This document shows, piece by piece, positions 9,032 to 63,803 of a stretch of 64,000 bases of DNA; the stretch's first letter is position 1; every line of letters begins with the position of its first letter. The translations under genes and the position numbers were made by a program. The DNA comes from Escherichia coli (GTDB lineage Bacteria; Pseudomonadota; Gammaproteobacteria; Enterobacterales; Enterobacteriaceae), in the NCBI RefSeq assembly GCF_024502345.1, contig NZ_JALDNN010000001.1. One strand, written 5' to 3'. Under the pieces are notes generated by a model that saw only the letters and a program-made list of their open reading frames with translations, ran no database searches and was not told the DNA's origin.

Positions 9032-10200
9032 GCGAGTTGAGTTATCTGGAAAAATTGCTGGATGGGGTTGAGGTTGAGTGGAAATCATTGGGAGATGTTG
9101 TAAATTTTCAGCGCGGAAGGCGGCTCGTAAAATCTCAGTTAGAAACCAGAGGTAAATATGCGGTTTACCAAAACAGCATGACACCACTCGGTTACTATCA
9201 TGAGTATAATGTCGCAGCTCAATCTTCGTTCATTATCTGTGCGGGTGCAGCCGGTGAAATTGGTTATAGCGAAAATGAATTTTGGGCTGCCGACGATGTT
9301 CATTTCGCAATCACACCAGAATATATAAATGACAGGTTTTTGTTTCATTTTTTGTTGACGCAAAAGAATAAAATTTCAGGACAAGTACGCCGTGCCAGTA
9401 TTCCGCGTCTCTCAAAGTCAGTAATTGAAAAACTTGAATTCCCCATCCCCTGCCCGGATAATCCGGAAAAGTCCCTTGCCATCCAGTCTGAAATCGTTCG
9501 GATTCTGGATAAATTTACTGCACTTACCGCTGAGCTTACCGCTGAGCTTAACATGCGTAAAAAACAGTACAACTACTATCGCGACCAGTTGCTGAGTTTT
9601 GATGAGGGTGAGGTTGAGTGGAAGGCTTTGGAGGAAGTCTCAACTTTTGCTAATGGAAAGGGGCATGAAAAAGACATATCAGAAGACGGTAAATATATTG
9701 TTGTAAACTCTAAGTTTATATCTACCAATGGCGAAGTCGCCAAGTTATCAAACAAACAGCTATGCCCTCTTTTTAAAGACGATATTCTTTTGGTTATGAG
9801 TGACCTGCCCAATGGCAAAGCACTTTCAAAAACATTTATTGTTGATGAAGATCATAAATACACTTTAAACCAACGTATTGGTGGAATTACAGTAAAAAAC
9901 AGTAATGAATTACTCCCTAAGTTTTTGCACTATTTTTTAAATAGAACCCCGCAATTGCTGAAACATGACAATGGTGTTGATCAAACAAATTTGCGTAAAG
10001 GTCAAATACTTGAAGTAAAAATACCAATAATTTCACTCATCAAACAAGTTCAGATCGTTGAAACTCTTGATAAATTCGATACTTACACTAAGTCGATTTC
10101 AGAAGGCCTCCCGCGCGAAATCGAGCTGCGCCATAAACAGTACGAGTACTATCGTGATTTATTGTTCAGCTTCCCGAGACCAGAAACCGCCAGCAACTGA
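9028..10200 (+). CDS. hsdS: type I R-M specificity subunit HsdS (type IC-like)
   Basis: Two target-recognition domains separated by a conserved central region with the TAEL repeats (LTAELTAEL) and a related C-terminal repeat (...[14 protein letters not shown]). Confidence 0.9.
9523..9550 (+). repeat. 12-bp direct repeat CTTACCGCTGAG x2 (plus partial CTTA) in the hsdS central spacer region
   Basis: Read directly: cttaccgctgag cttaccgctgag ctta, encoding LTAE-LTAE-L. Confidence 0.9.
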
Positions 10201-39766: not shown

Positions 39767-40372
39767 TCAAGGTTGTAACACGATCCGATTCGACTCCAGC
39801 ATGACAGCCGACAGTGTATGAGCCGCAAAAACAGCCATACAGGCTGACAAGTCGCCATTCACAAGAAACTCAACCGGCGCAACGAGTTTCCCTCCATCCG
39901 AAAATCCGCAGGTCAGTGCCGACTTCCTTACCAGCAGTGCATTCGCATCGCTGTATTCCAGGGCCAGAAGCGTTTCATTGTCCCAGTCCCTGTCACTCAC
40001 CGCTGCATTGACCCAGCCCCGCGATTTAAGCTGTTCAATTGCGTACGTCAGCCGATACAAATCCGACTGCGCTGACACCGGTCCGGTGCACGAAGACCAC
40101 AGATATTCCAGACGACTGAATAAGCTGGCGGCAAGGCCTTTGTTACGCCCCAGCGTCAGCAATCCCTCAATATCAGATGCGATTGCACGTGGAAACCGTT
40201 TTTGCTTATACGCCACCGTTAACCAGCGCAGTATAAATGCATGCGTGCTGAGTGGCGACAATGCCTGACCATCCTGCTGAGCGGTACGTAAGGCGACAAG
40301 GGCGCACCAGGCGAAATGCGCAAGTGCTGTGACGGTTTGTTCCGGGGGTAAGGTATCGTGAGCTTTTTTCAT
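39767..40372 (-). CDS. hypothetical protein (201 aa), first gene of a CP4-like module
   Basis: ORF; same strand and tight spacing with neighbours. Confidence 0.45.
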   Translation of the reverse strand: MKKAHDTLPPEQTVTALAHFAWCALVALRTAQQDGQALSPLSTHAFILRWLTVAYKQKRFPRAIASDIEGLLTLGRNKGLAASLFSRLEYLWSSCTGPVSAQSDLYRLTYAIEQLKSRGWVNAAVSDRDWDNETLLALEYSDANALLVRKSALTCGFSDGGKLVAPVEFLVNGDLSACMAVFAAHTLSAVMLESNRIVLQP

Positions 40373-40448
40373 TCAGGGATTATATCGGCGCTGCAGACAC
40401 CGGGGAAGACCTGGATAACTCCCCCATTAATTAGAGAAGCTATTACTT

Positions 40449-41015
40449 TCACGGACAAATCATCCCCGTTCTGGCCGTTGCTATTGGCTCTGACATGGCC
40501 TTAACATGCACGGTAAGCTGGTTAAAGGGTGTTGCGAAGACTCCCTGAGCGACGCGGTTAATAATGATCTGCGTCATACTCGTTACACCGTCAGTGCAGG
40601 CGGTACCGGTCACCTTTTGCCATGCGTCGGCGATGATGGCGTTAAGCCCCGGAGGCGCACTGTCGGTCAGTTGCAGGTTTCGCCCTGTACCCAGCGTATC
40701 GAGATTGAGCAGCAGCACCATTTTGCACTCCGGTGCGCTGGCCGTCTCCCATATCCAGCGTAACAGCGTCGGGAGTGAACGATGTCGTGCCTGCTGACGC
40801 TGGCGCGAATATTCGCCGGTGCGCTGCCAGACTTCAGAGTGAAAACGCAGAATCAATGACCGGTATTCGCTCATGGCTTCACGATACGGTAGCGCCAGCG
40901 TAAAGCTGAATGCCGCCAGTCGCGGGTAATGGTCAACGGCCTGTTGCAGAAATGCACGCGTGCTGACGGCATCCGCGCTGACAGCATCAGACGCCCGTAT
41001 GTAAGAATGATTCAT
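40449..41015 (-). CDS. YagK/YfjJ-like hypothetical protein (recurring paralog family, type A)
   Basis: Clear similarity to ORF 62146..62688 (AFLQQAVDHYPRLAAFSFTL vs RFVQQGVDHWPHLLAFHFTL; LRWIWE...KMVLLLNLD vs LRWLRE...RCLLLLSQT); family name from memory of CP4 prophage proteins. Confidence 0.45.
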   Translation of the reverse strand: MNHSYIRASDAVSADAVSTRAFLQQAVDHYPRLAAFSFTLALPYREAMSEYRSLILRFHSEVWQRTGEYSRQRQQARHRSLPTLLRWIWETASAPECKMVLLLNLDTLGTGRNLQLTDSAPPGLNAIIADAWQKVTGTACTDGVTSMTQIIINRVAQGVFATPFNQLTVHVKAMSEPIATARTGMICP

Positions 41016-41090
41016 AATGCAGACTCTCTTTAGGTTAAATCAGGGAGGACACCGCCTCTACGGCGGTATCTGGTTCATAAAGACGGGGAA

Positions 41091-41507
41091 CTATCTGGTA
41101 CTGCAGCAGTAGTTTCTCTGCCAGTGCGCTTCTTCGATGCTGTAGATACCAGTCAGACACCGGGGACAGTGCTTCACGCCCTGGTAATGGTCGCCGCACC
41201 ACACGCAGTACCAGGAGAGCACCATTACCGTCGCTTCCAGCCCGTTGATGAGACTGCGCAGCTTTCGGTGCCGGGCTTCGGTTTTCACTTCCGGGTCAAG
41301 GTGGGCGCAGGCCATCAGCACATGCCGGGCCACGCTCTGCTGGTCATGTTCAAACCACGGCGGCTCCCCGTATGTCCCCGCATGGAGCACCAGTCGACAG
41401 CCGCAGGACGCGCAGCTCCATATCTGCCCCGGCGCACTCACGGCCTCCCCGGCTGTCGCGAAGTGGCCTTCGCGGTCATTGGCCAGATAACATTTCAGCA
41501 TGCGCAT
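41091..41507 (-). CDS. Cys/His-rich putative zinc-binding protein (paralog 1)
   Basis: Shares the pattern SC..C.......PWFEH....C.....W.C..CG..Y.G...C..C.TG with ORF 41495..41944. Confidence 0.45.
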   Translation of the reverse strand: MRMLKCYLANDREGHFATAGEAVSAPGQIWSCASCGCRLVLHAGTYGEPPWFEHDQQSVARHVLMACAHLDPEVKTEARHRKLRSLINGLEATVMVLSWYCVWCGDHYQGVKHCPRCLTGIYSIEEAHWQRNYCCSTR

Positions 41508-41944
41508 GCCGTCACTTCCTCTATCCGGTTGGTATCAGCACGCACATCACTGTGCTCGCCCGTCCGGCAGGTGAGGCAGTAGCGCTCACCGTGGTAATCA
41601 CTGCCGCAGCCGTGACAGTGCCAGTCTGCGTAGAAAACCAGGGGACGGGCTTCCGGTACATAAGACTGCAGTTGCCGGATATGGCGGGTCTCCCTCACCC
41701 CGGGCTTTACATACGGGCAGTGCTGTCGACCGTTCTCCGAAAGCTTTGCTGCATGATGTTCAAACCACGGACGTTCGGTGTCGTATTCAGGATGGTACTG
41801 CAGGGCACTGGCACACAGATGGCAGCTGTAGCGGTCATACGGCGCGGTCTGCGCGGTTATGGCTCCCGTGAGACGGCCGTTGCCGTCCAGAGCCATAAAC
41901 GATTTTGCATACATAGTGGTACTCTCCTTACCGCCAGACGACAC
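41495..41944 (-). CDS. Cys/His-rich putative zinc-binding protein (paralog 2)
   Basis: As above; overlaps the downstream gene by about 13 nt. Confidence 0.45.
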   Translation of the reverse strand: MSSGGKESTTMYAKSFMALDGNGRLTGAITAQTAPYDRYSCHLCASALQYHPEYDTERPWFEHHAAKLSENGRQHCPYVKPGVRETRHIRQLQSYVPEARPLVFYADWHCHGCGSDYHGERYCLTCRTGEHSDVRADTNRIEEVTACAC

Positions 41945-42203
41945 GCAGGCGTCAGCCGTCCCGGTACGGGCAGCGTGGCAGGGTGAATGGCGGTTCAGTT
42001 ATGCGTTAGCGGGTCGGTACGGTTGGTGGTCGGCACCGGAATACAGAAAGGTTACGGTTGTGCAGGTGCGTCGGTGGGTCTGAAACAAACGGGACAGGGT
42101 CTGGCGCCACAGTACTGTCGCCGGCAACGGGGACACGTCCAGCGAACCGGGATGGCCTGTGGCTGAGTGCGGCGTCGTTTTTCCATTCAGATATCCTCCC
42201 TGC

Positions 42204-42443
42204 TCAGACGCCACGGGAATCAGCAATACGCTGCTGCATCCAGGCTTCCACCTCGCTTCTGCGCCAGCGGGAGCTGCGCCCCAGCTTGATGGGTTTCGGA
42301 AACAACCCGTCGCCAATCAGTTTGTAAAACCATTTGTCGGTCATCCCGGTAAACGTGGTGATAAAGGTCATGTCGATAAGCGGGTCCTGAGCTGAAAGCA
42401 GTGTGTCAGGGCTGGCATTAATATTCGTATTCAACGTGGTCAT
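42204..42443 (-). CDS. AlpA-like phage regulatory protein / excisionase-family HTH
   Basis: ...LIDMTFITTFTGMTDKWFYKLIGDGLFPKPIKLGRSSRWRRSEVEAWMQQR...; highly similar to ORF 62914..63144. Confidence 0.65.
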   Translation of the reverse strand: MTTLNTNINASPDTLLSAQDPLIDMTFITTFTGMTDKWFYKLIGDGLFPKPIKLGRSSRWRRSEVEAWMQQRIADSRGV

Positions 42444-42595
42444 GGTATTTTTCTCCCTCTGAGGATATGGCTATCGGGAGACGTCCGGTGGTGGTTGAAT
42501 CATGGGGTTACCGGTTCTCCTCAGAGGATAGGGGAACGTTGTAAAAAATTACCCGGCCCGCACAATCAGGCCTGATGAATCGAGATATGTCTGGC

Positions 42596-43201
42596 TCAGC
42601 CACGGCTGCAACCGAAGTTACGCTCACCGTCACCGGTGATTTTGGTCTCCAGCTTGGCTAAATAGGCCGCCTGCGACAGGGCCTGTTGCAGTTGAGCACC
42701 ATCGCCACGTGTCAACCATGAGACTGGACTCGCCGGGAAACGAGCCAGAACGGCATGCGCCTGTGCATCCACCTTCAGGGCGCTGCACCACGCTTGTTTA
42801 ATCATACCTGCAAGCGAATCCGGGTCTTTGTAATCTCCCGGTCCGCACCACGTATCGCGGTTCAGCAACAGCACCGCGTGGTAATGCTTCTTCCCTTTGA
42901 TTTCACCAAACTCCCGCGCCCAGATAAAACGCAGCGTGGTCGGCCAGACGCGTTTGCCCTCGCGACGTTGACGCGTCTGAAGGGCATCAATCCGGGCTTT
43001 CAGGGAATCGGTGAAGCGGGAGATAACAGCAGCATCGGTGGCCGCTGGCGTATCCGGCAGACGGAGGTCAACACGCAGGGCCAGTAAGCGGGTGTAAGCG
43101 TTAAGAGCGCAACTGAAGGTATCAGCGATGCGTTGCTGCCAGTAAGGGTCGTATGTGTAACTCATTAAAATGGACTCCGGTGGGTTATCGTTCATAACCA
43201 T
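42596..43201 (-). CDS. YagK/YfjJ-like hypothetical protein (type B)
   Basis: ...KHYHAVLLLNRDTW...; related to ORF 63213..63803. Confidence 0.45.
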   Translation of the reverse strand: MVMNDNPPESILMSYTYDPYWQQRIADTFSCALNAYTRLLALRVDLRLPDTPAATDAAVISRFTDSLKARIDALQTRQRREGKRVWPTTLRFIWAREFGEIKGKKHYHAVLLLNRDTWCGPGDYKDPDSLAGMIKQAWCSALKVDAQAHAVLARFPASPVSWLTRGDGAQLQQALSQAAYLAKLETKITGDGERNFGCSRG

Positions 43202-50277: not shown

Positions 50278-50673
50278 ATGAGACTAGCCAGCCGCTTTGG
50301 ACGGACAAACCAGATCCGTCGCGATCGTCCGTTAACCCGCGAAGAACTGATGCAGGTCGTTCCCAGCGTATTCAGTGCAGATCGCCACGGTTCCAGGAGC
50401 GAAAAATACGCTTACATACCCACCATTACTCTGCTCGAAAATCTTCAACGCGAAGGCTTTGAACCCTTCTTCGCCTGCCAGTCACGCGTACGCGACCCTG
50501 ACCGCCGGGAGCACACCAAACATCTGCTGCGCCATCTTTGTAGACCGGAGAATGATGTTTGGATGAAAGCGAGTTTTGGTACCCTCATCATTGAGGGTAC
50601 CAACAGCAAAATACTCGGCGAATGCTATTGTCTAAGCACAGCGCCAAGCCTTAGCGGCACGAATAGTTGTTAA
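50278..50673 (+). CDS. DUF932-like (YfjQ-like) protein, probably 3'-truncated
   Basis: MRLASRFGRTNQIRRDRPLTREELMQVVPSVF... resembles N-termini of CP4-prophage DUF932 proteins as I recall them; ORF ends 2 bp before the convergent res gene. Confidence 0.35.
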   Translation: MRLASRFGRTNQIRRDRPLTREELMQVVPSVFSADRHGSRSEKYAYIPTITLLENLQREGFEPFFACQSRVRDPDRREHTKHLLRHLCRPENDVWMKASFGTLIIEGTNSKILGECYCLSTAPSLSGTNSC

Positions 50674-50675
50674 CC

Positions 50676-53414
50676 TTACTCAGCTTTAGCAAACTGCTGG
50701 GTGAAGTAAGCCAATGAATTAGCTTCTTTTACGGCATCATGCGGAATGAGTAAGTATTTCCAAGGTTTGCCACCGTGCTGTGCAAGGTATTCACTGGCAT
50801 GACTACACCATTTCACACCACTGCGGGCTTTTTCGGTGACTTCCTCATTCCAACTGCCGTCTTGGTTTTGATGTTGAGTACTTTTAGTTTCAATCATCAA
50901 TACATAGTCGGCGGTTTCAGCAACGAAATCCGGCACGTATTCAGGATGCTCGCTACCGCGTTTGTAGTACATCTTGAATTGGCCTTTGGCAGGCTTAAAC
51001 CACTTCTCGCAGTCGCGTTCTAAAATCACCGCAAAACGGCGCTCAGTGTCTGAATCAAACTTTTGCAATGGGTATAGACAACGGCTAAAGCCGCCAAAGA
51101 GCATTTGTTTGATGCGACTGACATCGCGTACTGTATCACGGTAGCTTTGCACCGGCTGGTCTTGCGCTATGGTGTAAGCGCAGTCACGTAAGGTACTAAA
51201 GCCACTGCGTACATCGACGACGTACTCGGTTGCTTCTTCAAAGAAGTGGTTGTTCAGTTGCGCATGAATTAACTTCGCAATCGCATCACTCTGGTTTTGC
51301 AGAATGTTCTCAACCACATCGTCGTCGTTTTCAGCGGCCAGTGTATTGACAGCTTGAGTGGCTAGGTCAAACAAAAGTTCAGCTTGCTCGTCGTAAGGAA
51401 TATCGTCGTAATCGAACAGCTTCTTCAAAATATAGTTTTGTTTCACCGGCTCGTAGTTGCCCGAATCGCCTTCGCCACGAATGGTTTGGTGATTGTCTTG
51501 CAGGCTTTGTTGAATCAGAGTTCGGTCGATAGGTTTTAAACCTTTAATGGCAGCAATGTCCAAATCGAACGGGTGATAGCCGGTACGTACTTCACCTGAT
51601 GGTGAAACAATAATACGCGGAATATCTATGGTGTTATCCACCGTGAGCTGGGTGACTTGCTCAACAATCGCCGCAATATCCACCGATTCTTCAGTAAATA
51701 GCTCCCGTTGCTCTTGGGTTAACTGAGCTTTTACTTGTTCGGTGATCTGTGCTTTTACCTCAGTCGTTAACAATGCTTTGCTGGTCGGCGCATCGGTAGG
51801 GCGTGTTTGATATTGCTTGATCACGTCCAATGCAGCGCGGGCAACGGTTTGTTGGTTAGGCGTGGTATAAGTGGCTTTAGGTTCTTGTACCTCACGGTTA
51901 CCGTCTGCACCGGTTGCGGTTACACCTGAACCAGTCAGTTGCTGCTCTAGGTTCGATTTAACCTGCACACTTTGTTTGGTTACATCGTCTTCTGGGCGAT
52001 CTAATACGCGTGTTTTCAGGCGCAGTGGGTTATTCGGGTCGTTAGCCTCATCAACAATTTCTTGGAATTTGTCGTGCGCAACAATGCTCAGCGTATCGAC
52101 GGCTTCAACACCTGTACGTTTGCCATAAGGTAAACGCAAACCACGGCCAATTGACTGTTCAATTAGGGTTCTGGCGTTGGCTGCACGTAGTGGCACAATG
52201 GTGTACAGGTTAGTAACGTCCCAACCTTCTTTCAGCATGTTAACGTGAATGACGATCTCGGTTGGCTCATCGACATGCTCAACATTGAGCAGTGCTTGAA
52301 TAGTTTCTTCTTCTTTTTTACTGCTATCCACTTGAATGACTTTGCCACGGTAGCGGCCGTCAAACACTGTTTCAAGTTTGGTTAAAAGCTCTGCTGCATG
52401 CGTGGTATCACGGGCAATCACCAACATAAAAGGCTTAACTAACTTAGCATCGTTTTCATGTGCATAAGTGATTAAATCCACCTTGGTTTGCTCATGTAAA
52501 CGAATACCGTCCATTAACTTAATGGTTTCTAGTTCGTCTTTATCATATTGGCTGGCATCAAAGTTACGCTGAGTAACAACGGCAGGCTCTTTAACAAAAC
52601 CATCATCCATGGCACAGGCCAATGGGTAATCAATCACCACATTTTTAAAGTGCACAGGGCCACGACTTGATTCGGTAAATGGTGTGGCCGTTAGCTCTAA
52701 TGCGAATAGTGGATTAAGCTCATTGAGCGCACGCATACCGGCATCGGCACGATAGCGATGCGATTCGTCCATCAGCAGCACTAAGTCAGGTAAGTTCGAT
52801 AGATACTCAAAGTAGCTTTCGCCTAGGGTTTCCGCTAAACGCTTAATACGCGGGGCTTTGCCTCCACGTACTTCGGTGTTAATTTTCGCGATGTTAAACA
52901 CATTGATCCGAACCGAACCAAATAGATCGCCCATGACTTGTGCGCCGCGGCTCTCATAGTTATCACCGGTGATCACTTCTGGCGGTGCTAGCACAAAATC
53001 GGTAATGCCTTTAAACACGTACTTCGGTGAGGCGGGCGAGAAATCGCTGATCAGCTTTTCATAAATAGTCAGGTTAGGTGCCAACACAAAATAATTGCGA
53101 ATGCCATGTACCTGATACAAATAGGTAATAAACGCCCCCATCAAACGGGTTTTACCTACACCTGTTGCCAAGGCAAAACACAGTGAAGGAAAGTCACGTT
53201 CAAAATCGCTGAGCTTAGGAAACTGCGCTTTTAAGGTTTCTAATAGCTCCGGCACATCGCGTTTTGGGTTCAGTAGTTTGTGCTCAGAAGCACTAATCGC
53301 CACTGCCAACGCACGCAGCGAATCTTGCTGCGGCTGGCGTAAGCTTAAACGGCCAATAATATTATTAATGGCACGTAATTGGTCGGGTTTTAAGCTTGAT
53401 AAATCCATGGTCAT
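50676..53414 (-). CDS. type III-like restriction enzyme Res subunit (SF2 helicase plus C-terminal PD-(D/E)xK nuclease)
   Basis: 912 aa; Walker A LATGVGKTRLM; DEAH-like motif LVLLMDESHR; C-terminal ...YVPDFVAETADYVLMIETK... reads as a PD-(D/E)xK core. Confidence 0.75.
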   Translation of the reverse strand: MTMDLSSLKPDQLRAINNIIGRLSLRQPQQDSLRALAVAISASEHKLLNPKRDVPELLETLKAQFPKLSDFERDFPSLCFALATGVGKTRLMGAFITYLYQVHGIRNYFVLAPNLTIYEKLISDFSPASPKYVFKGITDFVLAPPEVITGDNYESRGAQVMGDLFGSVRINVFNIAKINTEVRGGKAPRIKRLAETLGESYFEYLSNLPDLVLLMDESHRYRADAGMRALNELNPLFALELTATPFTESSRGPVHFKNVVIDYPLACAMDDGFVKEPAVVTQRNFDASQYDKDELETIKLMDGIRLHEQTKVDLITYAHENDAKLVKPFMLVIARDTTHAAELLTKLETVFDGRYRGKVIQVDSSKKEEETIQALLNVEHVDEPTEIVIHVNMLKEGWDVTNLYTIVPLRAANARTLIEQSIGRGLRLPYGKRTGVEAVDTLSIVAHDKFQEIVDEANDPNNPLRLKTRVLDRPEDDVTKQSVQVKSNLEQQLTGSGVTATGADGNREVQEPKATYTTPNQQTVARAALDVIKQYQTRPTDAPTSKALLTTEVKAQITEQVKAQLTQEQRELFTEESVDIAAIVEQVTQLTVDNTIDIPRIIVSPSGEVRTGYHPFDLDIAAIKGLKPIDRTLIQQSLQDNHQTIRGEGDSGNYEPVKQNYILKKLFDYDDIPYDEQAELLFDLATQAVNTLAAENDDDVVENILQNQSDAIAKLIHAQLNNHFFEEATEYVVDVRSGFSTLRDCAYTIAQDQPVQSYRDTVRDVSRIKQMLFGGFSRCLYPLQKFDSDTERRFAVILERDCEKWFKPAKGQFKMYYKRGSEHPEYVPDFVAETADYVLMIETKSTQHQNQDGSWNEEVTEKARSGVKWCSHASEYLAQHGGKPWKYLLIPHDAVKEANSLAYFTQQFAKAE

Positions 53415-53435
53415 TATAATTATCCTTATTAACCG

Positions 53436-55142
53436 TTAATCTTGCGCTGCATCGTCATCGGCAGACGCATCGTCAGTTAGGTTTGCCACGTTTAACGAAT
53501 AATCGTCCTGACCAAATTGGCACTTGTCTAAAATGGCTTTTGGCAGTTTTTTCAAGGTTAAATTGGTAAAACGACCTGGCTCGCAGCGAAATGCACCACA
53601 CATAACCAGTAAAGTTCGGTCACTGCCAACTTCTTCTGACAGCGCTTCTAATTTATCTACCGATAAGCTTTGTGTGGTGACATAAATATGATCCGTCTCG
53701 GTTGAATAACCGTGATCCCACCAATTCACTTCCGATGGCGCATAGGTAAAACCTTCCAGCTTACAAACGGCTTCGGCGAGCATTTCTGGGTTGTACTCTT
53801 TATTGATCACTTCCAAGCCAAACTTATCTTTCACAATTAAGGTCGGGGCAAGTTTGTAATAGCGGAAGCCACCGCCACCTTGCCAGTTTACAGACTTAGA
53901 AATACCACCTTGATCTTCGCCATCAATCACTTTTTGCAAGCGCGGGATAATATGGGTATGACAATGATCACCTAGCTCGACCGAGATCCAACGTCTTTTC
54001 ATCTTGTGAGCTACAGCAGCAGTAGTTCCCGAACCACCGAATGAATCAAAGACTAAATCGCCTTCTCGCGTACACATTTCGAAAATCCGCTTCAAAAGCG
54101 CTTCGGGTTTTTTTCCATTTTTGAAACTAACGCCGCCTTCATTTGCTATTCCATTCCAACTAATGTCAGTCCAAACATCAGTTATTAGTTCAGCAGGTTG
54201 CATCTCACCGTCAATTTCCAAAAGCCTATTGGAGTAAAAGACCATTTGCCTACCATTTGCGATATAAAAGCCTTCGACATCCTCATTTGGATGTACATAA
54301 ACCTTATCCCTATCTTTCTTTGACTTCTCGATAGTTTCTTTTCTCTTTATTTTAGCACCACCACCAATTGCAACGGATTGAAATACACGTTCTGCATTAT
54401 CAATTGCGAATTGTGCTAATTCATCATCAAATGTATCAGGCAGTTTTTTCTTGGCTTCTTTTGTATCTTTATAGCCATTGGCCTTTGCAAACGCATCGGC
54501 AATACCGCACCACGTCCAACTTTTATAATGGTCATCTGGGTTTAATAGATATTTGTTATATCCCGTATCATATCCTTTAGGTATATAGATTTTGTTAAGC
54601 GGTTTCTGGGTGCGATCTTTTGCGTATACAAGCAAAAAGTTTACTGTGGAGAAAACTGTGGCCCCTGTTGCCTTAAAGCCTGAAGGGTCATTTGTGGTCA
54701 TCGATATGGTATTTAACTGATTTGCACGACCAAAAATCTCGTCCATCAAAACTTTTAAATAAGCCATTTCGCAGTCATCTAAGTGAACGAATATTACTCC
54801 ATCATCACTTAGTAGATTACGAATTATTTCTAACCTATCCCTCATTAAGCCCAGCCAAATGGAATGCTCCAGACCATCATCATAGTGCTCAAAAGCACTT
54901 CCGGTATTGAATGGTGGGTCTATGTAAACACACTTCACTTTGCCTGCATATTCTTGCTCTAGCGCCTTCAATGCCAATAAGTTATCGCCAAAAATCAGTT
55001 TATTATCAAAAATATCGTTTTCGGTCACTTTTTGGCTGGCGTGATAAGACTTGCTCGGGTCTTCTAACAAAATGCGCGGCTCTAACTTTTTGCGCTCGTT
55101 TTTGCCTATCCAGGTCAGTTCTAATTTGGTTTTGCTCATCAT
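53436..55142 (-). CDS. type III-like Mod DNA methyltransferase (beta-class N6-adenine/N4-cytosine)
   Basis: 568 aa; motif IV DPPFNTG near the N-terminus and motif I FDSFGGSGTT about 290 aa later (order IV-TRD-I). Confidence 0.8.
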   Translation of the reverse strand: MMSKTKLELTWIGKNERKKLEPRILLEDPSKSYHASQKVTENDIFDNKLIFGDNLLALKALEQEYAGKVKCVYIDPPFNTGSAFEHYDDGLEHSIWLGLMRDRLEIIRNLLSDDGVIFVHLDDCEMAYLKVLMDEIFGRANQLNTISMTTNDPSGFKATGATVFSTVNFLLVYAKDRTQKPLNKIYIPKGYDTGYNKYLLNPDDHYKSWTWCGIADAFAKANGYKDTKEAKKKLPDTFDDELAQFAIDNAERVFQSVAIGGGAKIKRKETIEKSKKDRDKVYVHPNEDVEGFYIANGRQMVFYSNRLLEIDGEMQPAELITDVWTDISWNGIANEGGVSFKNGKKPEALLKRIFEMCTREGDLVFDSFGGSGTTAAVAHKMKRRWISVELGDHCHTHIIPRLQKVIDGEDQGGISKSVNWQGGGGFRYYKLAPTLIVKDKFGLEVINKEYNPEMLAEAVCKLEGFTYAPSEVNWWDHGYSTETDHIYVTTQSLSVDKLEALSEEVGSDRTLLVMCGAFRCEPGRFTNLTLKKLPKAILDKCQFGQDDYSLNVANLTDDASADDDAAQD

Positions 55143-55196
55143 TTCTGTGCTCTTATCTTGTGTTCGTTACTTAGCGTTATTATTCTACAGCAATCG

Positions 55197-57062
55197 CTAC
55201 GCAGGTTGTGCTTGGCGATTACTCGCTTGGGTGTTTTGCCCTTGTCGGCGTTGCGCTTGCTCGGCTAAGTAACTGAATAAATTCTGGTTGTGTGGGTCGT
55301 TCGCTTGAAGGCGTTCTTGTTTTGCTACAACTGCCGGGCTTTCTGCCAAGTTTAAATGGCTAATCCACACCGTTTGCATTAAACGTGCGGTATCGCCCAA
55401 GCGTTTGAAGTATGCGTGCGGCGCACTGCCTAATACTAATGCCGTAAAACTATCAAAAAATTGCTGACGAAGTTCATCAAAAGCGTGGCTGATTAATCTT
55501 TTAAATGCCGCTTGCTCGGTAATCTCAGGAGCCGTAATAGCGCCTTCAAACTGCGCCATTAATAGCGTGGTTATGCAGTAAGTAAAATGTCGATATACCA
55601 GTTTTTCTGGGCTTGGACTACTGCGCTCTGCGTTTGTACATAAGACTTGAATAGCCAGATAGCAGTTCACCGCGTTAATGGCGACGGCCCCCTGTAAATC
55701 TGTACTAAAAACGGCTTGGTACTCGGCACTTTCTTGGTTAGTGAATTTGCTTGGCTCTACTTTTAGCTGATAAGGCACGCGTACATCACCGTGCATACAG
55801 GCCAATGCTTTGGCCAAGGTGTCGATAGTAATGCTGCGAATACCCGCTGCTGCGCTTTGTTGTGGGCGGTAGAGATATTCAACACCAAACATTTTCATCT
55901 CTTGGCGCAAGCGTTCTTGGGTATCATCCAGCGCGGCAAAGTTGGCTAAATCGACCGGGTTTTGCAGGTTACGCGCTTTGGTTACTTGTTTGTGAAATGC
56001 ATCGTTACCCGTGTTGATAATGGTTACCATCACTTGAGCTTGGCTGATGTCTGCATTTGGGTTTTCACGCATAAACTGTGCAGCACTAGCAATGGTTTGT
56101 GCACCGTTAACGACGGACAGGCCATCGACTGCAACATGCTTGCTACCTGTGTGGCCTCTAATATTCCCTTTTGGTTTTACTGCATTGCCAACCAGAGTAA
56201 TGCCATTGTTAAGATAAATAAAATTTTCCGGCTCATGTAAAAGGGTGTCTTTAATCGCCCTATTTACCCCACGTCTGCCAGCACCAATAAAATAGCGAAT
56301 ATTTTTCTCGTAAAGTTTACGGTCATGAGTAGTGTGCAAGGCAATTAAATCGGTTAGCTTGGCGATACCAAATACGACTTTTCGTGGTTGTTCTTGCACT
56401 CGGAACTTATATACAGCGACACGCTCGTTTACCGTATCAACCGCATGTTCACTGCGAAGAGCCTGCTCAACATCGGTGGCGGTGTATTCTTGATATTCAG
56501 GTGCGATTTGCTCTTCACCTTCATCAATCAGCTCTTGGATCGCTGGTTGTAGGTAGTTTTGTGCTTGTATGGTAATGCCATTACCTGTGTATGCGACAAG
56601 CAGTTGAATTCTTTCGCACTCGTCTAATGCGGCTTCAATATTTGCTTGAAGGTTTTGAACATTTTGATTAAAGCGGTGAAATTGCTTGTTTAAAAGTAAC
56701 TTTACACCCTCAATAAAAGCCTGTGCTTCGCCCAATTGGAATTGCGCATCTTCCTTCATTTTTGACTGTACTAAGTACAGAGTCTGATCAGCTTCGTGAT
56801 AATAAATTGCATCAATACCATGGTCTTCATAGTCGTCCACCACAGCTTTTGCTGCGGTCACTACGTCTAAATCGAATTTTTGCTGTAGTACGAATGCGCT
56901 AAAAGCCCTGGAAATTTGCTTTTTAGGTTTATCTTCTCGCCCACCTTGCCCAAGCAATGGCGGTAAATGCGGCACAAAACGCTGCTGTAGCAGTTCTTTT
57001 AATAGGGTAAGAAATTGTGGTTGTAATGCTGCCAAGTGAGTTGTCCTTATTTTTATTGCCAA
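55197..57062 (-). CDS. AIPR-like putative abortive-infection protein (tentative) with N-terminal PD-(D/E)xK-like motif
   Basis: 621 aa; N-terminal ...[22 protein letters not shown]... resembles a nuclease core; family assignment from memory only; start overlaps the upstream Abi_2 gene by about 10 nt. Confidence 0.35.
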
Positions 57063-57994
57063 ATTGGCCGCGCTTGCCAGTCGGCTGGAAAGCCCATGCG
57101 GTCAATGTCTATTTGGTGATGATTTATCAATTGGATGAGTCGTTGCTTCCAGTGATGTTCACCACTGATCACATCCATGAGGTAGCCCAACATCACCAAG
57201 GTGTTATAAATTTTTCGTAAACGCCGGTCGCTATCGGGCAGGTTTTGCAAGCTTTGAATCAGTGCCGGTTCACCATGGCGTGGCAGTACCGTGGTTTTAA
57301 TAAAATCACGGTTCCATAGCCTAGAATGATGGGCACTTAAATTGCGCACTAGCGACAAATGCTCACAGAATGAGGTAAGAGTTTTTTCATCTAGGCCGTA
57401 GCTTTTGCTTATTACCTGGCGGTCGGCACGCAGCTTGATATTGCTGTACCAACAGGAAAGTTGCCCCATGGTTAACAGCTCAACACAGGCCCAAATAGGG
57501 GGTAGTGGCTCTTGATATTTTTGCGTAAGGTGCTTGATGAACTCTTCACGACTGCACTTTACCTCACCCGTGAGTTTGCCAAGGCTACTGGCGTATTCTA
57601 ATAAATCACCAAAGAGCTCTGGTTTTAAATGAGGGTGCGCGGTTTGGTATTTTTGGCTCAACTGATACGCAATTTGTGTGCGTAATGACACCTCAAAACG
57701 CTCGATGGCATCTAGCACTAACAAACGTAGTTCACGGTCGAAAACATATAGGCTTAGGACTTGGTCAAACTGAGTACCTGTGATAAACGTATGACTGGCA
57801 TGATCTTGCTCATAGGGCAAACAATAAGCCGCAAAACGATAGTAGTTCAGCTGTGCTAAGTAAAACTCAGCTTTCGGGACATCACTGATCACTAGGCCAC
57901 GTTGTTGCAACAAGCGTACTTGATCGCTAAAGCTTGTAGGGGGCTTGGTAAAAGCGACTTTAGGGACTGGTTTGCGGCTCATTTGACCTCCCAT
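57053..57994 (-). CDS. Abi_2 family (AbiD/AbiF-like) abortive infection protein
   Basis: 313 aa; ...FGDLLEY... and ...[19 protein letters not shown]... match the hallmark Abi-like motifs as I recall them. Confidence 0.65.
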
Positions 57995-58139
57995 GCAACA
58001 GAAGATCGAATTTTGCGGGCCCCAGAAACGAGTAACCCCTCACAGGGCGCTGATCTGACGGGTAGCGGGAGGGGTGTTGTTGCAGTGATCATAGCCCCAA
58101 ACTGAAAAAAGTCAATGCTGGCGTTGAAATTGATTGTCA

Positions 58140-61034
58140 TCATTGAACCGTCCACCCAATGGTAAATAGGGTCTCTTGGCTGGTTTTTTTATTCAGTTTG
58201 CCTTCTAAGCTTTCAATCAGCTGTTCGCGCTTTTCGTCCACTTCATCTTGTTTATCAAACAGTTCACGGCGGCTTTTATTGCGCTGACTTTCTAACTGGC
58301 GCTGCTGTTTTTGCAGGGCAAGTTTCTCTTCCAGGGTTGGAGCTATTTTGGCTTCGCGGCGTACTTGCTTGATTTGCTTATCAAGCTCTTTTATAGATTG
58401 TTCAAGCCCTTCTTTTAAATCGTCTGCCCAAGAATCTAACTTGTTTACCTCTTGCTCGAAGAAGCTGAGATTACGATCGTTAACTTGCTTTTCGATGCCT
58501 AGTCTCGACTGCTGTAACGCATGCTGCAGCGCATATTGATAGCCAGGATATAAGGCGGCAAGTTCTTGCTCACTTACTTCACTTTGCACACAGGCACTAA
58601 GCTGCATCAGCTTTTGCACGACTTCACTTGGTAGCGGATGACCATGTTCATCTTGCGCGGCGAACAATAAATGGTCTTCGCTACGCTCCAATGATTCGAC
58701 ACTAAATTTTTGTAGGCTTAGTACACCTGACAAACCCACTAAGGGTTCTAGCATACTGATTTTTGTTTGGTGGTTGCTGTAATCAAAAATTACGCTGGCA
58801 ATGGGTAATTCACGTTGAAGCGCGTTGCTGATCACCCATTCACCCAGCGGGTGGGTGATACGATACACATGGGCATTGGCTAGTTTACCGGTTTCAATAC
58901 TGCCGCTTTGCTGTCCTCGGCGTACAAGTTGGTAGCTACCTGTAGGAGCCTGATTGATACTTTGATTAAGCGTAAAACTATGGTTGCTTGGGTCAATGTC
59001 TGCGATAGCTGCAAGTTCATGCGTACTGAGTTGCCAGAACCAACGGCCTACTTTATCGAGGCGTTGCTGCGCGGCATCTAGCTGAATTTTGAGTAAGTCG
59101 TGAATATCTTCATCGAAATTTTCCAGCAGCAGTTGCTGGGTCTCGCGCATTTTTTGGTTGATGTCGGCTTCTAGCTCTTTTTGCAATTGATCAAAAGCTG
59201 CTTCTATTTCCGCCGGTTGCCGACAAGTCTCGTATATATTTTGGATGCGTTTTTCAAAATCAATACCAGATTCAATGCTGCCTAGCACATCGTCCGATGC
59301 ACCAAACACGCCATCGAACAGATGGAATTTTTCAGTCAGTAACTCTAAAACACGCTGATCGGCTTTGTTGGCTTCGTTGAGGAAGTTGATCACCACAACA
59401 TCAAATTGCTGCCCATAGCGGTGACAACGGCCAATACGTTGCTCTACTCGTTGTGGGTTCCATGGTAAGTCATAGTTAATAAGTAACGAACAGAACTGTA
59501 AGTTAACCCCTTCTGCAGCCGCTTCGGTTGCGATCATAACTTCGGCATGATGGCGGAAGTAATCAATTAGGGCAGTACGGCGGTCAATTTGCGGTGAACC
59601 ACTCACCTTATCACTACCTTGGTTTTCAGCTAACCACTGCTGATAAACTTTGGTTGCTTCTGGATGGTTATTGCTGCCACTAAAGGTGACTAATTTATCA
59701 GCAAAGCCATTCGCCTCGAGGAAACGAGCTAGGTATTCTTGCGTGCGCTTCGATTCGGTAAAAATAATGACTTTACGTGGCGCCCCCATTTCCTCCATTT
59801 TGGCAAACCCTTGATTAAGCGCCGTTAGCAAGGCTTGGGTTTTACTGTCGGTGGTAATGGATTTAGCCTGCTCGATATAATGCTCAAGCTCGGCTATTTC
59901 AGCATTGAGTAACTCAAAGTCAATATCACTCTCAGGGGTATTGCTTTGTGTTTCTTCTACATACTCGCTGTACTCTTCTCCTAAATCATCACTCTCAACA
60001 AGCTCACTGATAATATCGAGGTCCGATTTAGCCTGTACTTTCAAGTCAACCAATCGGCGCTTTATAGTTTCGAGTGTGTTGAGCACTGCGTGCGAACTAG
60101 ATGCTAATAGCTTTCTCAGTATAAGGCCGGTTAAATGACGTTGGCTCTTGGGTAGTGCATAGCTCTCGTCCTTTTCCAATAAGGCACTAATACTTTCGTA
60201 AAGTGCCATCTCAGCATTAGAGGGTGTAAACGGTACGGTGAGTGTTTGACGTTGGGTATAGCGGACGTATTCGAGTACATCTTTGCGCAAGGTACGCTGA
60301 ATAAACCCGGTAAGTCGTTTCTTTAAATGCCCTAGCGCACTTTCGTTATTGACAAAGTGTTGTTTGAAGCTTCGCTCATCGCCGAAGATTTGATCGTCGA
60401 TAATGGTTGAAAGTCCATACAATTCCATGAGCGAGTTTTGTAAGGGTGTTGCAGTAAGTAATAGCTTTTTACTGCCATCTAATGCGCGGCGTAGCGTTTG
60501 ACCCATTTTATTGCTGCTACGATGTGCATTACGTAGCTTGTGCGCTTCGTCGATGACGACAATATCCCATGGCTCTAGCATTAGCTGCGTTTCCATTCTC
60601 GCAGCATAGTGATAGGACATAATAGAAACGCAGTGATTAGCTAGCGGGTTAGTTTGACCATTGTTAACACTAATGCGCCACGTTTTTGCATCAAGCACTT
60701 GCGTTGGTAAATTAAACTTATCGCCCAATTCCTGCGCCCACTGGCGTCGCAATGACGCCGGGCAGATGATCAATATGCGGCGTTTACGCTCTGCCCAATA
60801 CTGTGACAGTACTAAGCCTGCTTCAATAGTTTTCCCTAAGCCCACTTCATCAGCGAGTACAACACCTTTGCTTAACGGGTTGTTGAGCGCAAAAAGTGCC
60901 GCATGAATTTGGTGCGGATTGAGATCAACACTGGCATCAAAAAGAGATTGAGACAATTTATCAACGCCATTTTCAGCGTGGCGAATGGTTAATTCCTGCG
61001 CAAAGTATTTTGCTTGATAATCAGTTATTACCAT
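58140..61034 (-). CDS. SNF2-family (SWI2/SNF2) DEAD/DEAH-box helicase with long coiled-coil C-terminal extension
   Basis: ORF 58140..61115 trimmed to the ATG at 61034 that overlaps the stop of the upstream HTH gene (ATGGTAATAACTGA); motifs LADEVGLGKTIEAG, IVVIDEAHKLRN, helicase C motif ...QRIGRCHRYGQ.... Confidence 0.85.
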   Translation of the reverse strand: MVITDYQAKYFAQELTIRHAENGVDKLSQSLFDASVDLNPHQIHAALFALNNPLSKGVVLADEVGLGKTIEAGLVLSQYWAERKRRILIICPASLRRQWAQELGDKFNLPTQVLDAKTWRISVNNGQTNPLANHCVSIMSYHYAARMETQLMLEPWDIVVIDEAHKLRNAHRSSNKMGQTLRRALDGSKKLLLTATPLQNSLMELYGLSTIIDDQIFGDERSFKQHFVNNESALGHLKKRLTGFIQRTLRKDVLEYVRYTQRQTLTVPFTPSNAEMALYESISALLEKDESYALPKSQRHLTGLILRKLLASSSHAVLNTLETIKRRLVDLKVQAKSDLDIISELVESDDLGEEYSEYVEETQSNTPESDIDFELLNAEIAELEHYIEQAKSITTDSKTQALLTALNQGFAKMEEMGAPRKVIIFTESKRTQEYLARFLEANGFADKLVTFSGSNNHPEATKVYQQWLAENQGSDKVSGSPQIDRRTALIDYFRHHAEVMIATEAAAEGVNLQFCSLLINYDLPWNPQRVEQRIGRCHRYGQQFDVVVINFLNEANKADQRVLELLTEKFHLFDGVFGASDDVLGSIESGIDFEKRIQNIYETCRQPAEIEAAFDQLQKELEADINQKMRETQQLLLENFDEDIHDLLKIQLDAAQQRLDKVGRWFWQLSTHELAAIADIDPSNHSFTLNQSINQAPTGSYQLVRRGQQSGSIETGKLANAHVYRITHPLGEWVISNALQRELPIASVIFDYSNHQTKISMLEPLVGLSGVLSLQKFSVESLERSEDHLLFAAQDEHGHPLPSEVVQKLMQLSACVQSEVSEQELAALYPGYQYALQHALQQSRLGIEKQVNDRNLSFFEQEVNKLDSWADDLKEGLEQSIKELDKQIKQVRREAKIAPTLEEKLALQKQQRQLESQRNKSRRELFDKQDEVDEKREQLIESLEGKLNKKTSQETLFTIGWTVQ

Positions 61035-61227
61035 CCAACACCCCTTTTCCTTGAGCTGCTTGCGTACTGATCCATTCTTCAAGATCGGATTGTTTAAAGC
61101 GCCAAGCATTGCCAACTTTAAAAGCAGGAATTTTATGTACCGCTGCTAGACGGTAAACAGTTCTCTCATTTACCTTCAAATACTCAGCTACTTCTTTAAT
61201 TGTCAGAACGGTATCAGTCATTTTCAC
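61021..61227 (-). CDS. small excisionase/MerR-like HTH DNA-binding protein, first gene of the operon
   Basis: 68 aa; ...LTIKEVAEYLKVNERTVYRLAAVHKIPAFKVGNAWRFKQSDLEEWI.... Confidence 0.6.
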   Translation of the reverse strand: MKMTDTVLTIKEVAEYLKVNERTVYRLAAVHKIPAFKVGNAWRFKQSDLEEWISTQAAQGKGVLDGNN

Positions 61228-61433
61228 TCGGCCACTTTGAAAAGTGCGTCAATTATCTAATGCGAGTGTCAAAATAGTACAAATAAGTACATGAATCAAT
61301 CTTATTCGGCACTTGCCGGAGCTCCTTGGCTTTAATCCTCATCAATTTTAGGTACAGTTTTCAGGCTCGGGGATAAAGTATAAAGAATGTCGTACTGCCG
61401 CTGCCAGAGCAATATTCCCCCCTGCTGGTTGTA

Positions 61434-62145: not shown

Positions 62146-62688
62146 TCACCGGATGATTGTTGCAATAACCAGTGGCCTCAGAGACTGAACAGCCGTTTTT
62201 AACGCAACGTATTGCTCTGATGTATCAGGCCGGGTAACCCGAAAACACCTTTCCACCCGACATTGTCCGCCCGTATCCATCCCCCGCCAGGTCTGCTGCA
62301 GTAAATCCACCACTTGCGAACATTGTTCATCAACTGTGACACTGGCTCGCGGGTGACAAATACTCGTCTGGCTGAGCAGCAACAGGCATCGCATTGTTGC
62401 TCCTCCATGTTGTTCCCGCAACCAGCGTAATACCACCGGCGATGATGGACTGGTCGTGTGATTACGCTCAGTAATACGTTCATAAAAGGAAGTACAGAAT
62501 GCATGAATATGTTGCCCGTTGATGTTTCCTTCTGCCGAATGGAGCGTGAAGTGAAATGCCAACAGATGTGGCCAGTGGTCCACCCCCTGCTGAACAAAAC
62601 GCCGGATTTCCCCCGGCGCTGAAAGTAAGGCTTCGGTTATTTGCACTATTTTACCCCTGTGAATTTTGTTAAGCCGGTGCAGACACAC
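62146..62688 (-). CDS. YagK/YfjJ-like hypothetical protein (type A, second copy)
   Basis: Paralog of ORF 40449..41015. Confidence 0.45.
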   Translation of the reverse strand: MCLHRLNKIHRGKIVQITEALLSAPGEIRRFVQQGVDHWPHLLAFHFTLHSAEGNINGQHIHAFCTSFYERITERNHTTSPSSPVVLRWLREQHGGATMRCLLLLSQTSICHPRASVTVDEQCSQVVDLLQQTWRGMDTGGQCRVERCFRVTRPDTSEQYVALKTAVQSLRPLVIATIIR

Positions 62689-62913
62689 GGAAAGCGCACA
62701 TCAACACCAGCACAGTACGATACAAACACCAGTGACTGACGGGACGAAGGAAATGACGAATCAGTCAGGAAATGATGACAAACAGTTGGCTGACCAGAGG
62801 GTGTCAGCAGAAAGATGAGCGGGAGTGTCGCCAGCACCAGGGACAGGGCTGATTTCCGCAATACCAGCGCCGGCATTTTGCACATTGACAGCGTACTGGC
62901 ATTACAACACGTT

Positions 62914-63144
62914 TCATGCTGCTCCTCGTGATTCCTCAATTCGCTGCTGCATCCACTGCTCCACTTCACTTTTGTACCAGCGGCTGCTGCGCCCCAGTTT
63001 GATGGGTTTAGGGAAATGACCTTCACTGATCAGCCTGTAAAACCATTTATCGGTCATGCCGGTGAAACTGGTGATGTAGTTCATGTCGATCAGGGGATCA
63101 TCGGCACGCAGCAATACGCTGTCGTGGCTTGTTGTGGTCAACAT
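62914..63144 (-). CDS. AlpA-like phage regulatory protein (second copy)
   Basis: ORF 62914..63264 trimmed to MLTTTSHDSVLLRADDPLIDMNYITSFTGMTDKWFYRLISEGHFPKPIKLGRSSRWYKSEVEQWMQQR. Confidence 0.6.
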   Translation of the reverse strand: MLTTTSHDSVLLRADDPLIDMNYITSFTGMTDKWFYRLISEGHFPKPIKLGRSSRWYKSEVEQWMQQRIEESRGAA

Positions 63145-63212
63145 GGTCAGAATGTCCTCAGTGAGATTTATGAAGAATGGGGTAATACGGGAAATGGGAT
63201 TGCGTGCTGCTT

Positions 63213-63803
63213 TCAGCACTGCCAACCGGGATTGCCGGCAAGGCAACGGGCTTCCGGATCGCACACTCCACGGCGATCGCGGGCGAAATCACTGAACGCC
63301 CAGATAAGGTCCTTAAACAGGGCTTCGCAGTCCGGTGACCGGCGATCCAGTACCACATCCCGGGTGATCTGCTTCTGGTACAGCTTTGCTTCACCTGGTG
63401 ACGCGAAACCCAGCACATTACTCCAGGCATCCAGTATCAACCGATCCAGTTCGGGGCCGTCGAAATACTCCTGTCTGACGCACAGCACCACGTGGTATTC
63501 CGGCTTTTCCGGATGACGGGTCAGGAGCCAGCAGAGGTCACGCCCGGGCGTTGCATTCATCAGCGCACTGACAGTTTCGATAAAGGCCATACCAAACCAG
63601 GTCTTTCTGCTGCTGAAGGTAGTGTCATATTCACATGGCAGACGAAGCAGGATCCGCCGTACCCGGGAGCCGGACTGCTCACGCAGCGCACGCTCAAGAA
63701 CGCCGATGACTTTGCTCTGATAAGATGGCCAGAAGGGGGCAAGGCTATAGTCGAAATAAGGAATAGCATTCATAAGATATGCTCCGTTATGCGCAGCCCA
63801 CAA
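63213..63803 (-). CDS. YagK/YfjJ-like hypothetical protein (type B, second copy)
   Basis: ...EYHVVLCVRQEYFDG...; related to ORF 42596..43201. Confidence 0.45.
   Translation of the reverse strand: MWAAHNGAYLMNAIPYFDYSLAPFWPSYQSKVIGVLERALREQSGSRVRRILLRLPCEYDTTFSSRKTWFGMAFIETVSALMNATPGRDLCWLLTRHPEKPEYHVVLCVRQEYFDGPELDRLILDAWSNVLGFASPGEAKLYQKQITRDVVLDRRSPDCEALFKDLIWAFSDFARDRRGVCDPEARCLAGNPGWQC

Follow-up and report, generated by a model that had tools for sequence, protein, structure and literature searches.

In restriction-modification (R-M) systems with a controller (C) protein, a small helix-turn-helix (HTH) gene heads the restriction gene, often overlapping it, and the C protein autoregulates the timing and level of R-M expression in a new host. 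A gene pair with the same layout, and with the same proposed role, is present in a 64,000-nucleotide stretch of Escherichia coli DNA (NCBI RefSeq assembly GCF_024502345.1, contig NZ_JALDNN010000001.1). This stretch is called the window here, and coordinates refer to it unless a comparison locus (L number) is named. The first gene of the pair encodes a 66-amino-acid HTH protein and the second a 964-amino-acid SNF2-family helicase. Both genes, and all the genes of their operon, are on the minus strand. The order of the cassette is promoter/operator, HTH gene, DrmD-like SNF2 helicase gene, AbiD and AIPR cargo genes, type III DNA methyltransferase (Mod) gene, and type III Res gene. We consider it likely that the HTH gene is the autoregulatory leader gene of a mobile SNF2-type III defense cassette, with translational coupling to the helicase possible. 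The protein is distinct from the C proteins themselves, which are XRE/HTH_3-type dimers on palindromic C-boxes, whereas an HTH_17 winged helix and direct repeats are found here.

MADS is the closest described system with respect to the leader gene. The HTH protein belongs to the same family as MAD1, its gene holds the leader position in a methylation-based defense operon, and the same three-pentamer block lies upstream. The downstream genes differ, being those for the SNF2 helicase, AbiD, AIPR, and type III Mod and Res instead of mad2 to mad8. MAD6, MAD7, and MAD8 are mandatory in the MADS detection model (bioRxiv 10.1101/2023.03.30.534895), and none of the five proteins encoded downstream of the HTH gene has a PADLOC match to mad2 through mad8, which places the operon outside MADS. 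The authors of the MADS study class MAD1 with 'widespread regulators' and report that deletion of mad1 barely affects defense (Maestri et al., bioRxiv 10.1101/2023.03.30.534895). Both the label and the weak deletion effect fit a regulatory role.

Class 1 DISARM, in which DrmD occurs with DrmMI, DrmA, DrmB, and DrmC, is the closest described system with respect to the helicase. The helicase gene (58140..61034, minus strand) encodes a protein with SNF2-rel_dom and Helicase_C domains of the Pfam type, intact GLGKT, DEAH, and QRIGRCHRYGQ motifs, and a coiled-coil C-terminus. It is closest to the DrmD models and shares its operon with an N6-adenine-type methyltransferase. The PADLOC DrmD model (PDLC02619) matches at 693 bits over residues 30–665 only, and the scores fall below both DrmD equivalog cut-offs of NCBIfam (697 against 950 bits for NF038318, DrmD_b; 305 against 610 bits for NF038317). 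The helicase family is very large, with at least 8000 candidates at E ≤ 1e-20, and lengths of 950–966 amino acids predominate among the best 120. No DrmA, DrmB (DUF1998), or DrmC is encoded in the operon, and the only matches of its other proteins are to AbiD, AbiU/AIPR, MTase_III, and REase_III. An initial annotation of this DNA, made from the sequence by itself, had described the SNF2 helicase as DISARM-related but with different partner genes. Both points agree with the result: the helicase is DrmD-like, and it is accompanied by type III Mod and Res, from which AbiD and AIPR separate it. The system is distinct from both DISARM and MADS.

Classical type III R-M systems (EcoP15I-like) have adjacent genes in the order Mod then Res, and this order and the family-level matches are also seen here. 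The window operon differs in having an extra conserved SNF2 helicase upstream, a leader regulator that is optional, and further defense genes in a slot between the helicase and Mod. BrxR, a WYL-domain regulator of BREX and other defense islands, occupies the position of the HTH gene in two of the comparison loci (L087 and L046). It is approximately 300 amino acids long and has winged HTH, WYL, and C-terminal domains, whereas the window protein is a single HTH_17 domain of 66 amino acids and lies outside the WYL regulators.

The leader gene (61021..61221, minus strand) is identified as a MAD1-family HTH_17 gene by profile hidden Markov models (HMMs), the RefSeq name mads1, an AlphaFold2 (AF2) model, and third-position codon bias. 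The initial annotation gave a 68-amino-acid HTH open reading frame (ORF). That ORF exists, beginning at a GTG at 61227, but the conserved start is the ATG at 61221, which yields 66 amino acids. This ATG is kept in all HTH relatives and is also the start chosen by PGAP. Pfam HTH_17 matches residues 5–54 with an E value of 2e-19. The NCBIfam equivalog model for MAD1 (NF047737) gives the 68-amino-acid ORF 81.9 bits, a small margin over its cut-off of 80. PADLOC mad1 (PDLC04133) matches at an E value of 3e-10, and TIGR01764 ('excise') at 62.5 bits. The HTH protein is a member of the MAD1 family within a non-MADS operon.

Eight homologous HTH genes show 289, 183, and 816 differences at codon positions 1, 2, and 3 of the HTH frame, respectively. 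The excess at the third position points to purifying selection in this frame. Together with the HTH_17 and MAD1 matches, this selection bears out the earlier description of the HTH as a real DNA-binding gene. Both genes of the pair, HTH and helicase, are real.

The AF2 model of the HTH protein has a pLDDT of 82.5 and a beta-alpha-alpha-beta-beta-alpha winged helix. By both Pfam and AF2, the protein is a single winged-helix domain of the HTH_17/excisionase type, which is approximately 60–70 amino acids in size. A fold search with the model returned, as the closest PDB folds, BldC-DNA complexes (6ama, 6amk), RdfS, and the Xis of a mycobacteriophage or of GIsul2. These matches have TM values of 0.6–0.8 and a probability of 1.0, yet E values of only about 1e-2, the protein being small. 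A sequence search against the PDB gave weak matches only (E ≥ 0.2). The predicted fold is therefore described here as BldC/Xis-like. BldC of Streptomyces, which is MerR-like without an effector domain, and the Xis/RdfS excisionases are the best structural matches, but identity to them is approximately 20–28%, the NCBIfam BldC model gives 23.5 bits against a cut-off of 77, and the repeat sequence is different. BldC has a pleiotropic regulon, of which there is no sign for the HTH protein, as the window holds a single full copy of the candidate site described below.

The 3’ end of the HTH ORF reads GAT GGT AAT AAC TGA, with the TGA at 61023–61021, and the helicase frame from 61034 reads ATG GTA ATA ACT GAT. 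The HTH stop and the first helicase codons overlap by 14 nucleotides (ATGGTAATAACTGA, 61034–61021, minus strand), and this overlap is real, as the initial annotation had described. In E. coli 90-1, RefSeq/PGAP names the two genes of an identical pair mads1 (66 amino acids) and 'SNF2-related protein' (964 amino acids), with the same 14-nucleotide overlap. In all of the fetched relatives with a 66-amino-acid HTH (L084, L100–L106, and L005), the overlap is 14 nucleotides and its position is unchanged. Either TGA or TAA serves as the HTH stop in these junctions, with a corresponding D or N at residue 5 of the helicase. This covariation indicates that both frames are maintained.

The 14-nucleotide overlap is found in Yersinia (L084), Photobacterium, the Oceanisphaera-like L100, L101–L106, L005, and L088. 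The Vibrio and Providencia relatives (L082 and L085) overlap by 8 nucleotides, and L089–L096 have gaps of 5–10 nucleotides. A species-level survey was made with one genome per species and covers 80 helicase loci from many phyla. In the nine loci of this survey that carry the HTH gene, the distance from HTH stop to helicase start comprises overlaps of 14, 4, 4, 8, and 11 nucleotides, one direct abutment, and gaps of 3, 58, and 73 nucleotides.

A Shine-Dalgarno (SD)-like AAGGGG is present at 61046–61041 (minus strand), six nucleotides 5’ of the helicase ATG. RNA folding of the junction (60995–61095) is not significant (z = −0.85) and shows no structure occluding the helicase start; folding of the operon leader is not significant either (z = +0.92). 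These results leave structure-dependent coupling without evidence. The overlaps common in translational coupling are 1 and 4 nucleotides. A length of 14 nucleotides had been called typical of coupling, and this does not hold, since it is a junction specific to the family. Coupling between the HTH gene and the helicase gene is plausible from the conserved overlap or abutment of the two frames. The overlap is an ordinary, conserved operon junction. Such architecture is routine, and RefSeq already has annotations for both genes.

The candidate core promoter/operator (61267..61299, minus strand) is the only conserved block in the type A upstream regions. These regions cannot be aligned except for this block, which has the consensus ATTGATyCA-TGyACTyATTTGTACTAnTTTGACA. 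In the window it is composed of a -35 element, TTGATT (61299–61294), a 17-nucleotide spacer, and a -10 element, TATTTT (61276–61271). Three pentamers in 10-base-pair phase, TGTAC-N5-TGTAC-N5-TGACA (61291–61267), fill the spacer and the -10 element. BldC regulates promoters through head-to-tail multimers on direct repeats (PMC5859096), and such binding fits the geometry of the three phased pentamers. The promoter region has no inverted repeat, the sole one being inside the HTH coding sequence, and a palindromic operator was rejected on that ground. A promoter-scan site at 61157–61130 is intragenic and is regarded as a chance match.

The general form of the motif, TGYAY-N5-TGWAY-N5-YGACA, has 22 matches in the 1.82 Mb of fetched loci. 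All 22 are located 19–59 nucleotides 5’ of the start of a MAD1-type HTH gene with the recognition helix KVNERT[VI]YRLA, on the same strand, MADS-linked genes included. Conversely, every fetched HTH gene of the KVNERT[VI]YRLA type has the motif upstream, whichever system (SNF2-type III or MADS-like) is downstream. A two-pentamer version has four matches in the whole window against 2.7 expected, giving no sign of internal sites. In L100 and L097, the repeats begin at the last base of the -10 element of a TTGACA-16-TA[AG]ACT promoter. HTH proteins with the helix KLAEKTAYRLA (L082, L085, and L088) are associated with TTCCy pentamers in the same phase at a TTGnnn-17-TATTCT promoter. A different recognition helix with different pentamers amounts to covariation of protein and DNA.

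Of 78 species-level loci, 9 have an HTH_17 gene immediately 5’ of the helicase gene and in the same orientation, and where the HTH gene is present it always holds this place. Clustering of the genes that precede the helicase yielded no large family besides the HTH and BrxR. A BrxR/WYL gene is in the HTH position in L087 (7105–8001), with a 1-nucleotide TAATG overlap, and in L046 (about 9093–9989), with a 2-nucleotide gap. A BrxR homologue is also just upstream in L058 (about 8967–9869; 131-nucleotide gap) and in L010 (about 9117–9990), where the helicase start is uncertain. HTH proteins 63–65% identical to that of the window head MADS-like operons of Psychrobacter (L097–L099), and the same HTH family heads other SNF2-Mod-Res operons (L089–L096). 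The MADS-like loci fetched have no overlap; the HTH gene is followed by a 2-nucleotide gap and a gene of 127 amino acids.

More distant relatives are not confined to defense. A 93-amino-acid HTH protein with 55% identity is encoded by the first gene of the heat-resistance locus (LHR/tLST; sHSP20, ClpK, and others) on more than 1000 Klebsiella plasmids. Examples are at 8980–9261 of L108 (Klebsiella plasmid pCRE-195-1) and 3868–4149 of L109 (an Acinetobacter plasmid). Relatives of the MAD1 family thus lead non-defense operons too. The LHR papers contain no functional data on this related orf1 HTH.

The operon of L100 has the order HTH-SNF2-Abi_2-AIPR-Mod-Res, which is that of the window. Its HTH core and promoter (TTGACA-16-TAAACT, then the repeats) are nearer to those of the MADS-linked Psychrobacter HTH (L097) than to those of the window. 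This likeness hints, at the level of sequence, at the exchange of a promoter-HTH cartridge between different types of system. The HTH gene is an optional, exchangeable leader module and not a core enzyme partner.

In the mechanism proposed here, the HTH protein would bind head-to-tail, in the manner of BldC and Xis, at the three pentamers in the core promoter of the operon. Once bound, it would autoregulate the operon as a whole at the level of transcription, and would most likely do so as a repressor. It would act like an R-M controller protein or BrxR, setting the level and timing of expression upon entry into a new host. The helicase would be co-transcribed with the HTH gene, and its translation would probably be partly coupled to termination of the HTH frame, though it has an SD sequence of its own. 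The initial annotation had suggested an autoregulated toxin-type module. The first part of this is supported indirectly, by the conserved promoter repeats; the second is not, given the lack of any toxin-antitoxin (TA) family, a 964-amino-acid helicase as partner, and a six-gene operon.

Several observations weigh against an autoregulatory leader gene. Approximately 85% of the helicase family has no HTH gene of any kind, and regulation by the HTH is therefore dispensable for the system. The promoter is weak (8 of 12 positions match the consensus), was assigned by eye, and is not listed by a generic promoter scan. The motif was defined post hoc from partly the same sequences, and its 22 matches represent approximately eight independent lineages. 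Chance would in any case produce only about 0.1 matches, which means that the zero background is no strong test. Promoter function by itself could account for a conserved block at such a location, and the more divergent HTH genes (L004, L018, L022, and others) do not have this motif. With respect to coupling, the helicase has its own SD sequence and no occluding RNA structure, and coupling is not required.

Other explanations of the HTH gene can be compared on the same data. The HTH protein may be a stoichiometric DNA-binding subunit or adaptor of the helicase or R-M machinery, for example in loading of the SNF2 translocase, with the overlap serving co-translational assembly at a fixed ratio. 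The tight and conserved junction, whether overlap or abutment, is compatible with this, as is the C-terminal tail of the HTH protein, which varies with the downstream partner, and architectural DNA-binding proteins, such as Xis, RacA, and terminase small subunits, share the fold. A fixed partner is nevertheless hard to reconcile with an HTH gene that is absent from approximately 85% of same-family helicase loci and replaced by the unrelated BrxR in others. A nearly identical DNA-binding core also heads MADS-like operons without an SNF2 gene immediately downstream, deletion of mad1 has a limited effect on MADS defense, and a conserved DNA motif is found at the HTH gene's own promoter. A subunit role is considered unlikely. 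It is still less probable that the HTH protein is the excisionase (recombination directionality factor) of an island, next to the helicase by chance. The TIGR01764 score of 62.5 bits, the weak similarity to Tn916 Xis and AlpA-type excisionases, and the occurrence of the cassette within integrase-bearing islands would agree with an excisionase. The gene travels with the SNF2 or MADS operon, however, and not with a recombinase; depending on the locus, it adjoins one of various tyrosine integrases or a serine recombinase, is carried by a plasmid, or has no recombinase at all in the flank. Separate AlpA genes exist in the islands (62914–63264 in the window, and in L082, L084, L088, and L097), the conserved repeats are at the HTH gene's own promoter rather than at island ends, and the E. 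coli cassette is a discrete insert in a backbone common to more than 1500 genomes.

A TA-like autoregulated module, in which the HTH is the antitoxin or repressor and the helicase or the downstream Abi genes are the toxin, is very improbable. A small HTH gene that overlaps the gene downstream is the usual TA layout, and the operon carries the abortive-infection genes AbiD and AIPR. Against this, the operon proteins match no TA family in PADLOC, NCBIfam, or Pfam, and the partner gene encodes a conserved 964-amino-acid SNF2 helicase that is mostly found without the HTH. AbiD and AIPR are variable cargo that many HTH-bearing loci lack, and a promoter of their own may drive them. Finally, the helicase might begin upstream of the overlap, at TTG 61115 or ATG 61109, in which case the HTH ORF would be a non-expressed alternative frame. 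The helicase ORF is indeed open back to 61115 in the window. The initial annotation had allowed for a start there and had called the codon an ATG; the codon is TTG, and the ATG that follows it in this frame is at 61109. Sixteen diverse homologues of the helicase share its N-terminus, M-x-I-T-D-Y-Q/H-A-K-Y-F, from residue 1 onward. In most of the 80 species-level loci, the helicase ORF opens a few codons 5’ of this conserved Met, and the extension of the helicase frame 5’ of ATG 61034 contains stop codons in Yersinia L084 and in L104–L106. Starts at 61109 and 61115 are rejected for these reasons, and comparative sequence data settle the helicase start as ATG 61034. The HTH gene also has third-position bias and HMM matches, and PGAP calls both genes with the same starts. 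An upstream start can be given next to no weight, and the autoregulatory leader gene is retained as the preferred explanation.

The remaining genes of the operon were compared with the PADLOC, Pfam, and NCBIfam families. The Mod gene (53436..55142, minus strand) matches PADLOC MTase_III (PDLC03636) with 944 bits over residues 1–568, its full length, and has DPPF and FGGSG motifs. By this match it belongs to the type III methyltransferase family. The Res-like gene (50676..53414, minus strand) matches REase_III (PDLC03648) with 634 bits over residues 96–566, and Pfam ResIII at an E value of 1e-19. A PD...ExK-like motif, VPDF...IETK, can be read from the translation of its C-terminus. A match to an Hjc-like nuclease is weak (E value of 0.52), and the NCBIfam type III models score under their cut-offs.

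Two cargo genes are located between the helicase and Mod. The AbiD/Abi_2 family gene (57053..57994, minus strand; PGAP start at 57982) matches PADLOC AbiD with 238 bits. It is not present in the Vibrio, Yersinia, and Providencia relatives but is present in L100. The AIPR family gene (55197..57035, minus strand), which is AbiU-like and is a common cargo of this slot, is supported by library matches, RefSeq, and relatives, and its ORF is open to 57062. A promoter-like site, TTGACT-16-TATGAT (58088..58115, minus strand), sits within the 145 nucleotides that separate the helicase stop from the abiD start. This site is a consensus match only (10 of 12 positions) and is the best of the region in the scan. 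From this site, the AbiD-AIPR cargo may bring its own promoter.

The association of the helicase with Mod and Res extends beyond E. coli. In the species-level survey, a type III Mod gene is on the same strand in 38 of the 48 loci that have at least 6 kb of downstream flank. Most also have a Res gene: Res of the window's type is present in 28 of the same 48 loci, and a second Res type of 1100 amino acids is present in approximately 8 across all fetched loci. PADLOC names this second type REase_III as well. A second class of loci, with methylases of 1050 amino acids, was considered as class 1 DISARM; this was rejected, as PADLOC identifies them as type III Mod and Res.

Zero to four extra ORFs from many unrelated defense families lie between the helicase and Mod. 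They include AIPR, AbiD, the HEC-01A ATPase, SIR2 with HerA, PDC-S02, PDC-S05, PDC-S13, and a pAgo-like protein. Since Mod and Res recur and the contents of the slot vary, the core is taken to be SNF2-Mod-Res, with AbiD and AIPR as cargo. In these loci (L002–L081), the interval between Mod and Res sometimes also holds extra defense genes, making a defense hotspot inside a defense operon.

Two variants of the arrangement are apparently decayed or otherwise altered. L093 and L094 (10338–13639) have the HTH and SNF2 genes followed by an ORF of 181 amino acids and Res, with no called Mod. Res without Mod would be unexpected if Res is active. In L102 and L103 (9188–12002), the helicase is split (507 and 142 amino acids) and is followed by an Mrr-type nuclease, beside ParDE.

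No described system combining SNF2 with type III R-M was found in the literature searched; the only remark in Iyer et al. 2008 is that AIPR is common in R-M operons. The triad suggests a third core component in many type III-like systems, which current detection tools would be splitting into 'RM type III' and an orphan DISARM gene; this affects counts in defense inventories.

A broader proposal with two parts is made only tentatively, and we hold it to be rather doubtful that both parts are correct. One part is that the MAD1-type HTH gene and its three-pentamer promoter form a portable promoter-operator-regulator cartridge, and the other is that the operon represents an undescribed defense architecture that spans phyla. 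The cartridge may be swapped between unrelated mobile operons, namely MADS, SNF2-type III R-M, and, more distantly, LHR/tLST, and may be the HTH_17 counterpart of the C proteins and BrxR. In the architecture, a DrmD-like SNF2 helicase may occur obligatorily with type III Mod and Res, around an internal slot that collects AIPR, AbiD, SIR2-HerA, HEC-01A, and PDC families. If the pentamer block is the MAD1 operator, expression of the defense operon would be predictable and could be engineered, and the HTH_17 class would join the defense regulators beside the C proteins, BrxR, and the CapW type. What appears modestly new, as judged from sequence comparison, is the candidate repeat operator shared between systems and the widespread SNF2-type III triad with its cargo slot.

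The cassette is a discrete insert of approximately 10.8 kb (about 50524–61357) within an E. coli island backbone. The backbone above approximately 61357, the region of an ECs1377-family gene, is common to about 1536 genomes. Below 50524, other cassette-bearing strains no longer match the window, and the left flank differs in this strain. The HTH-helicase junction region was found in 29 of 5426 genomes, and at least 80% of the full cassette in 24. Similarity to the 97%-identical cassette of L005 begins approximately 15 nucleotides upstream of the -35 element, around 61311. From this point, and from the end of the backbone match near 61357, it follows that the cassette carries its own promoter block. 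The cassette is also found on plasmids, and 22 plasmid records hold an HTH gene with 95–99% identity. The best reading of the operon is a horizontally mobile, self-contained anti-phage restriction/defense cassette.

One plasmid copy, in L107 (Salmonella IncFIB plasmid CP123678.1), has the same HTH-SNF2-Mod-Res cassette with an HTH 98.5% identical to that of the window. It contains an IS256 element after the helicase, its Abi gene is truncated, and AIPR is absent.

A tRNA scan located no tRNA gene in the window, and the attachment site is accordingly not in view. The island backbone contains paralogous sets of genes. Genes of the YagK/YfjJ type (inovirus Gp2-like) are present at 40449–41015, 42596–43201, 62146–62688, and 63213–63803, zinc-ribbon proteins are encoded at 41091–41944, and an AlpA-like gene is present at 62914–63264. 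The paralogous sets, at 39767–43201 and 62146–63803 of the window, suggest at least two related integrative elements in tandem.

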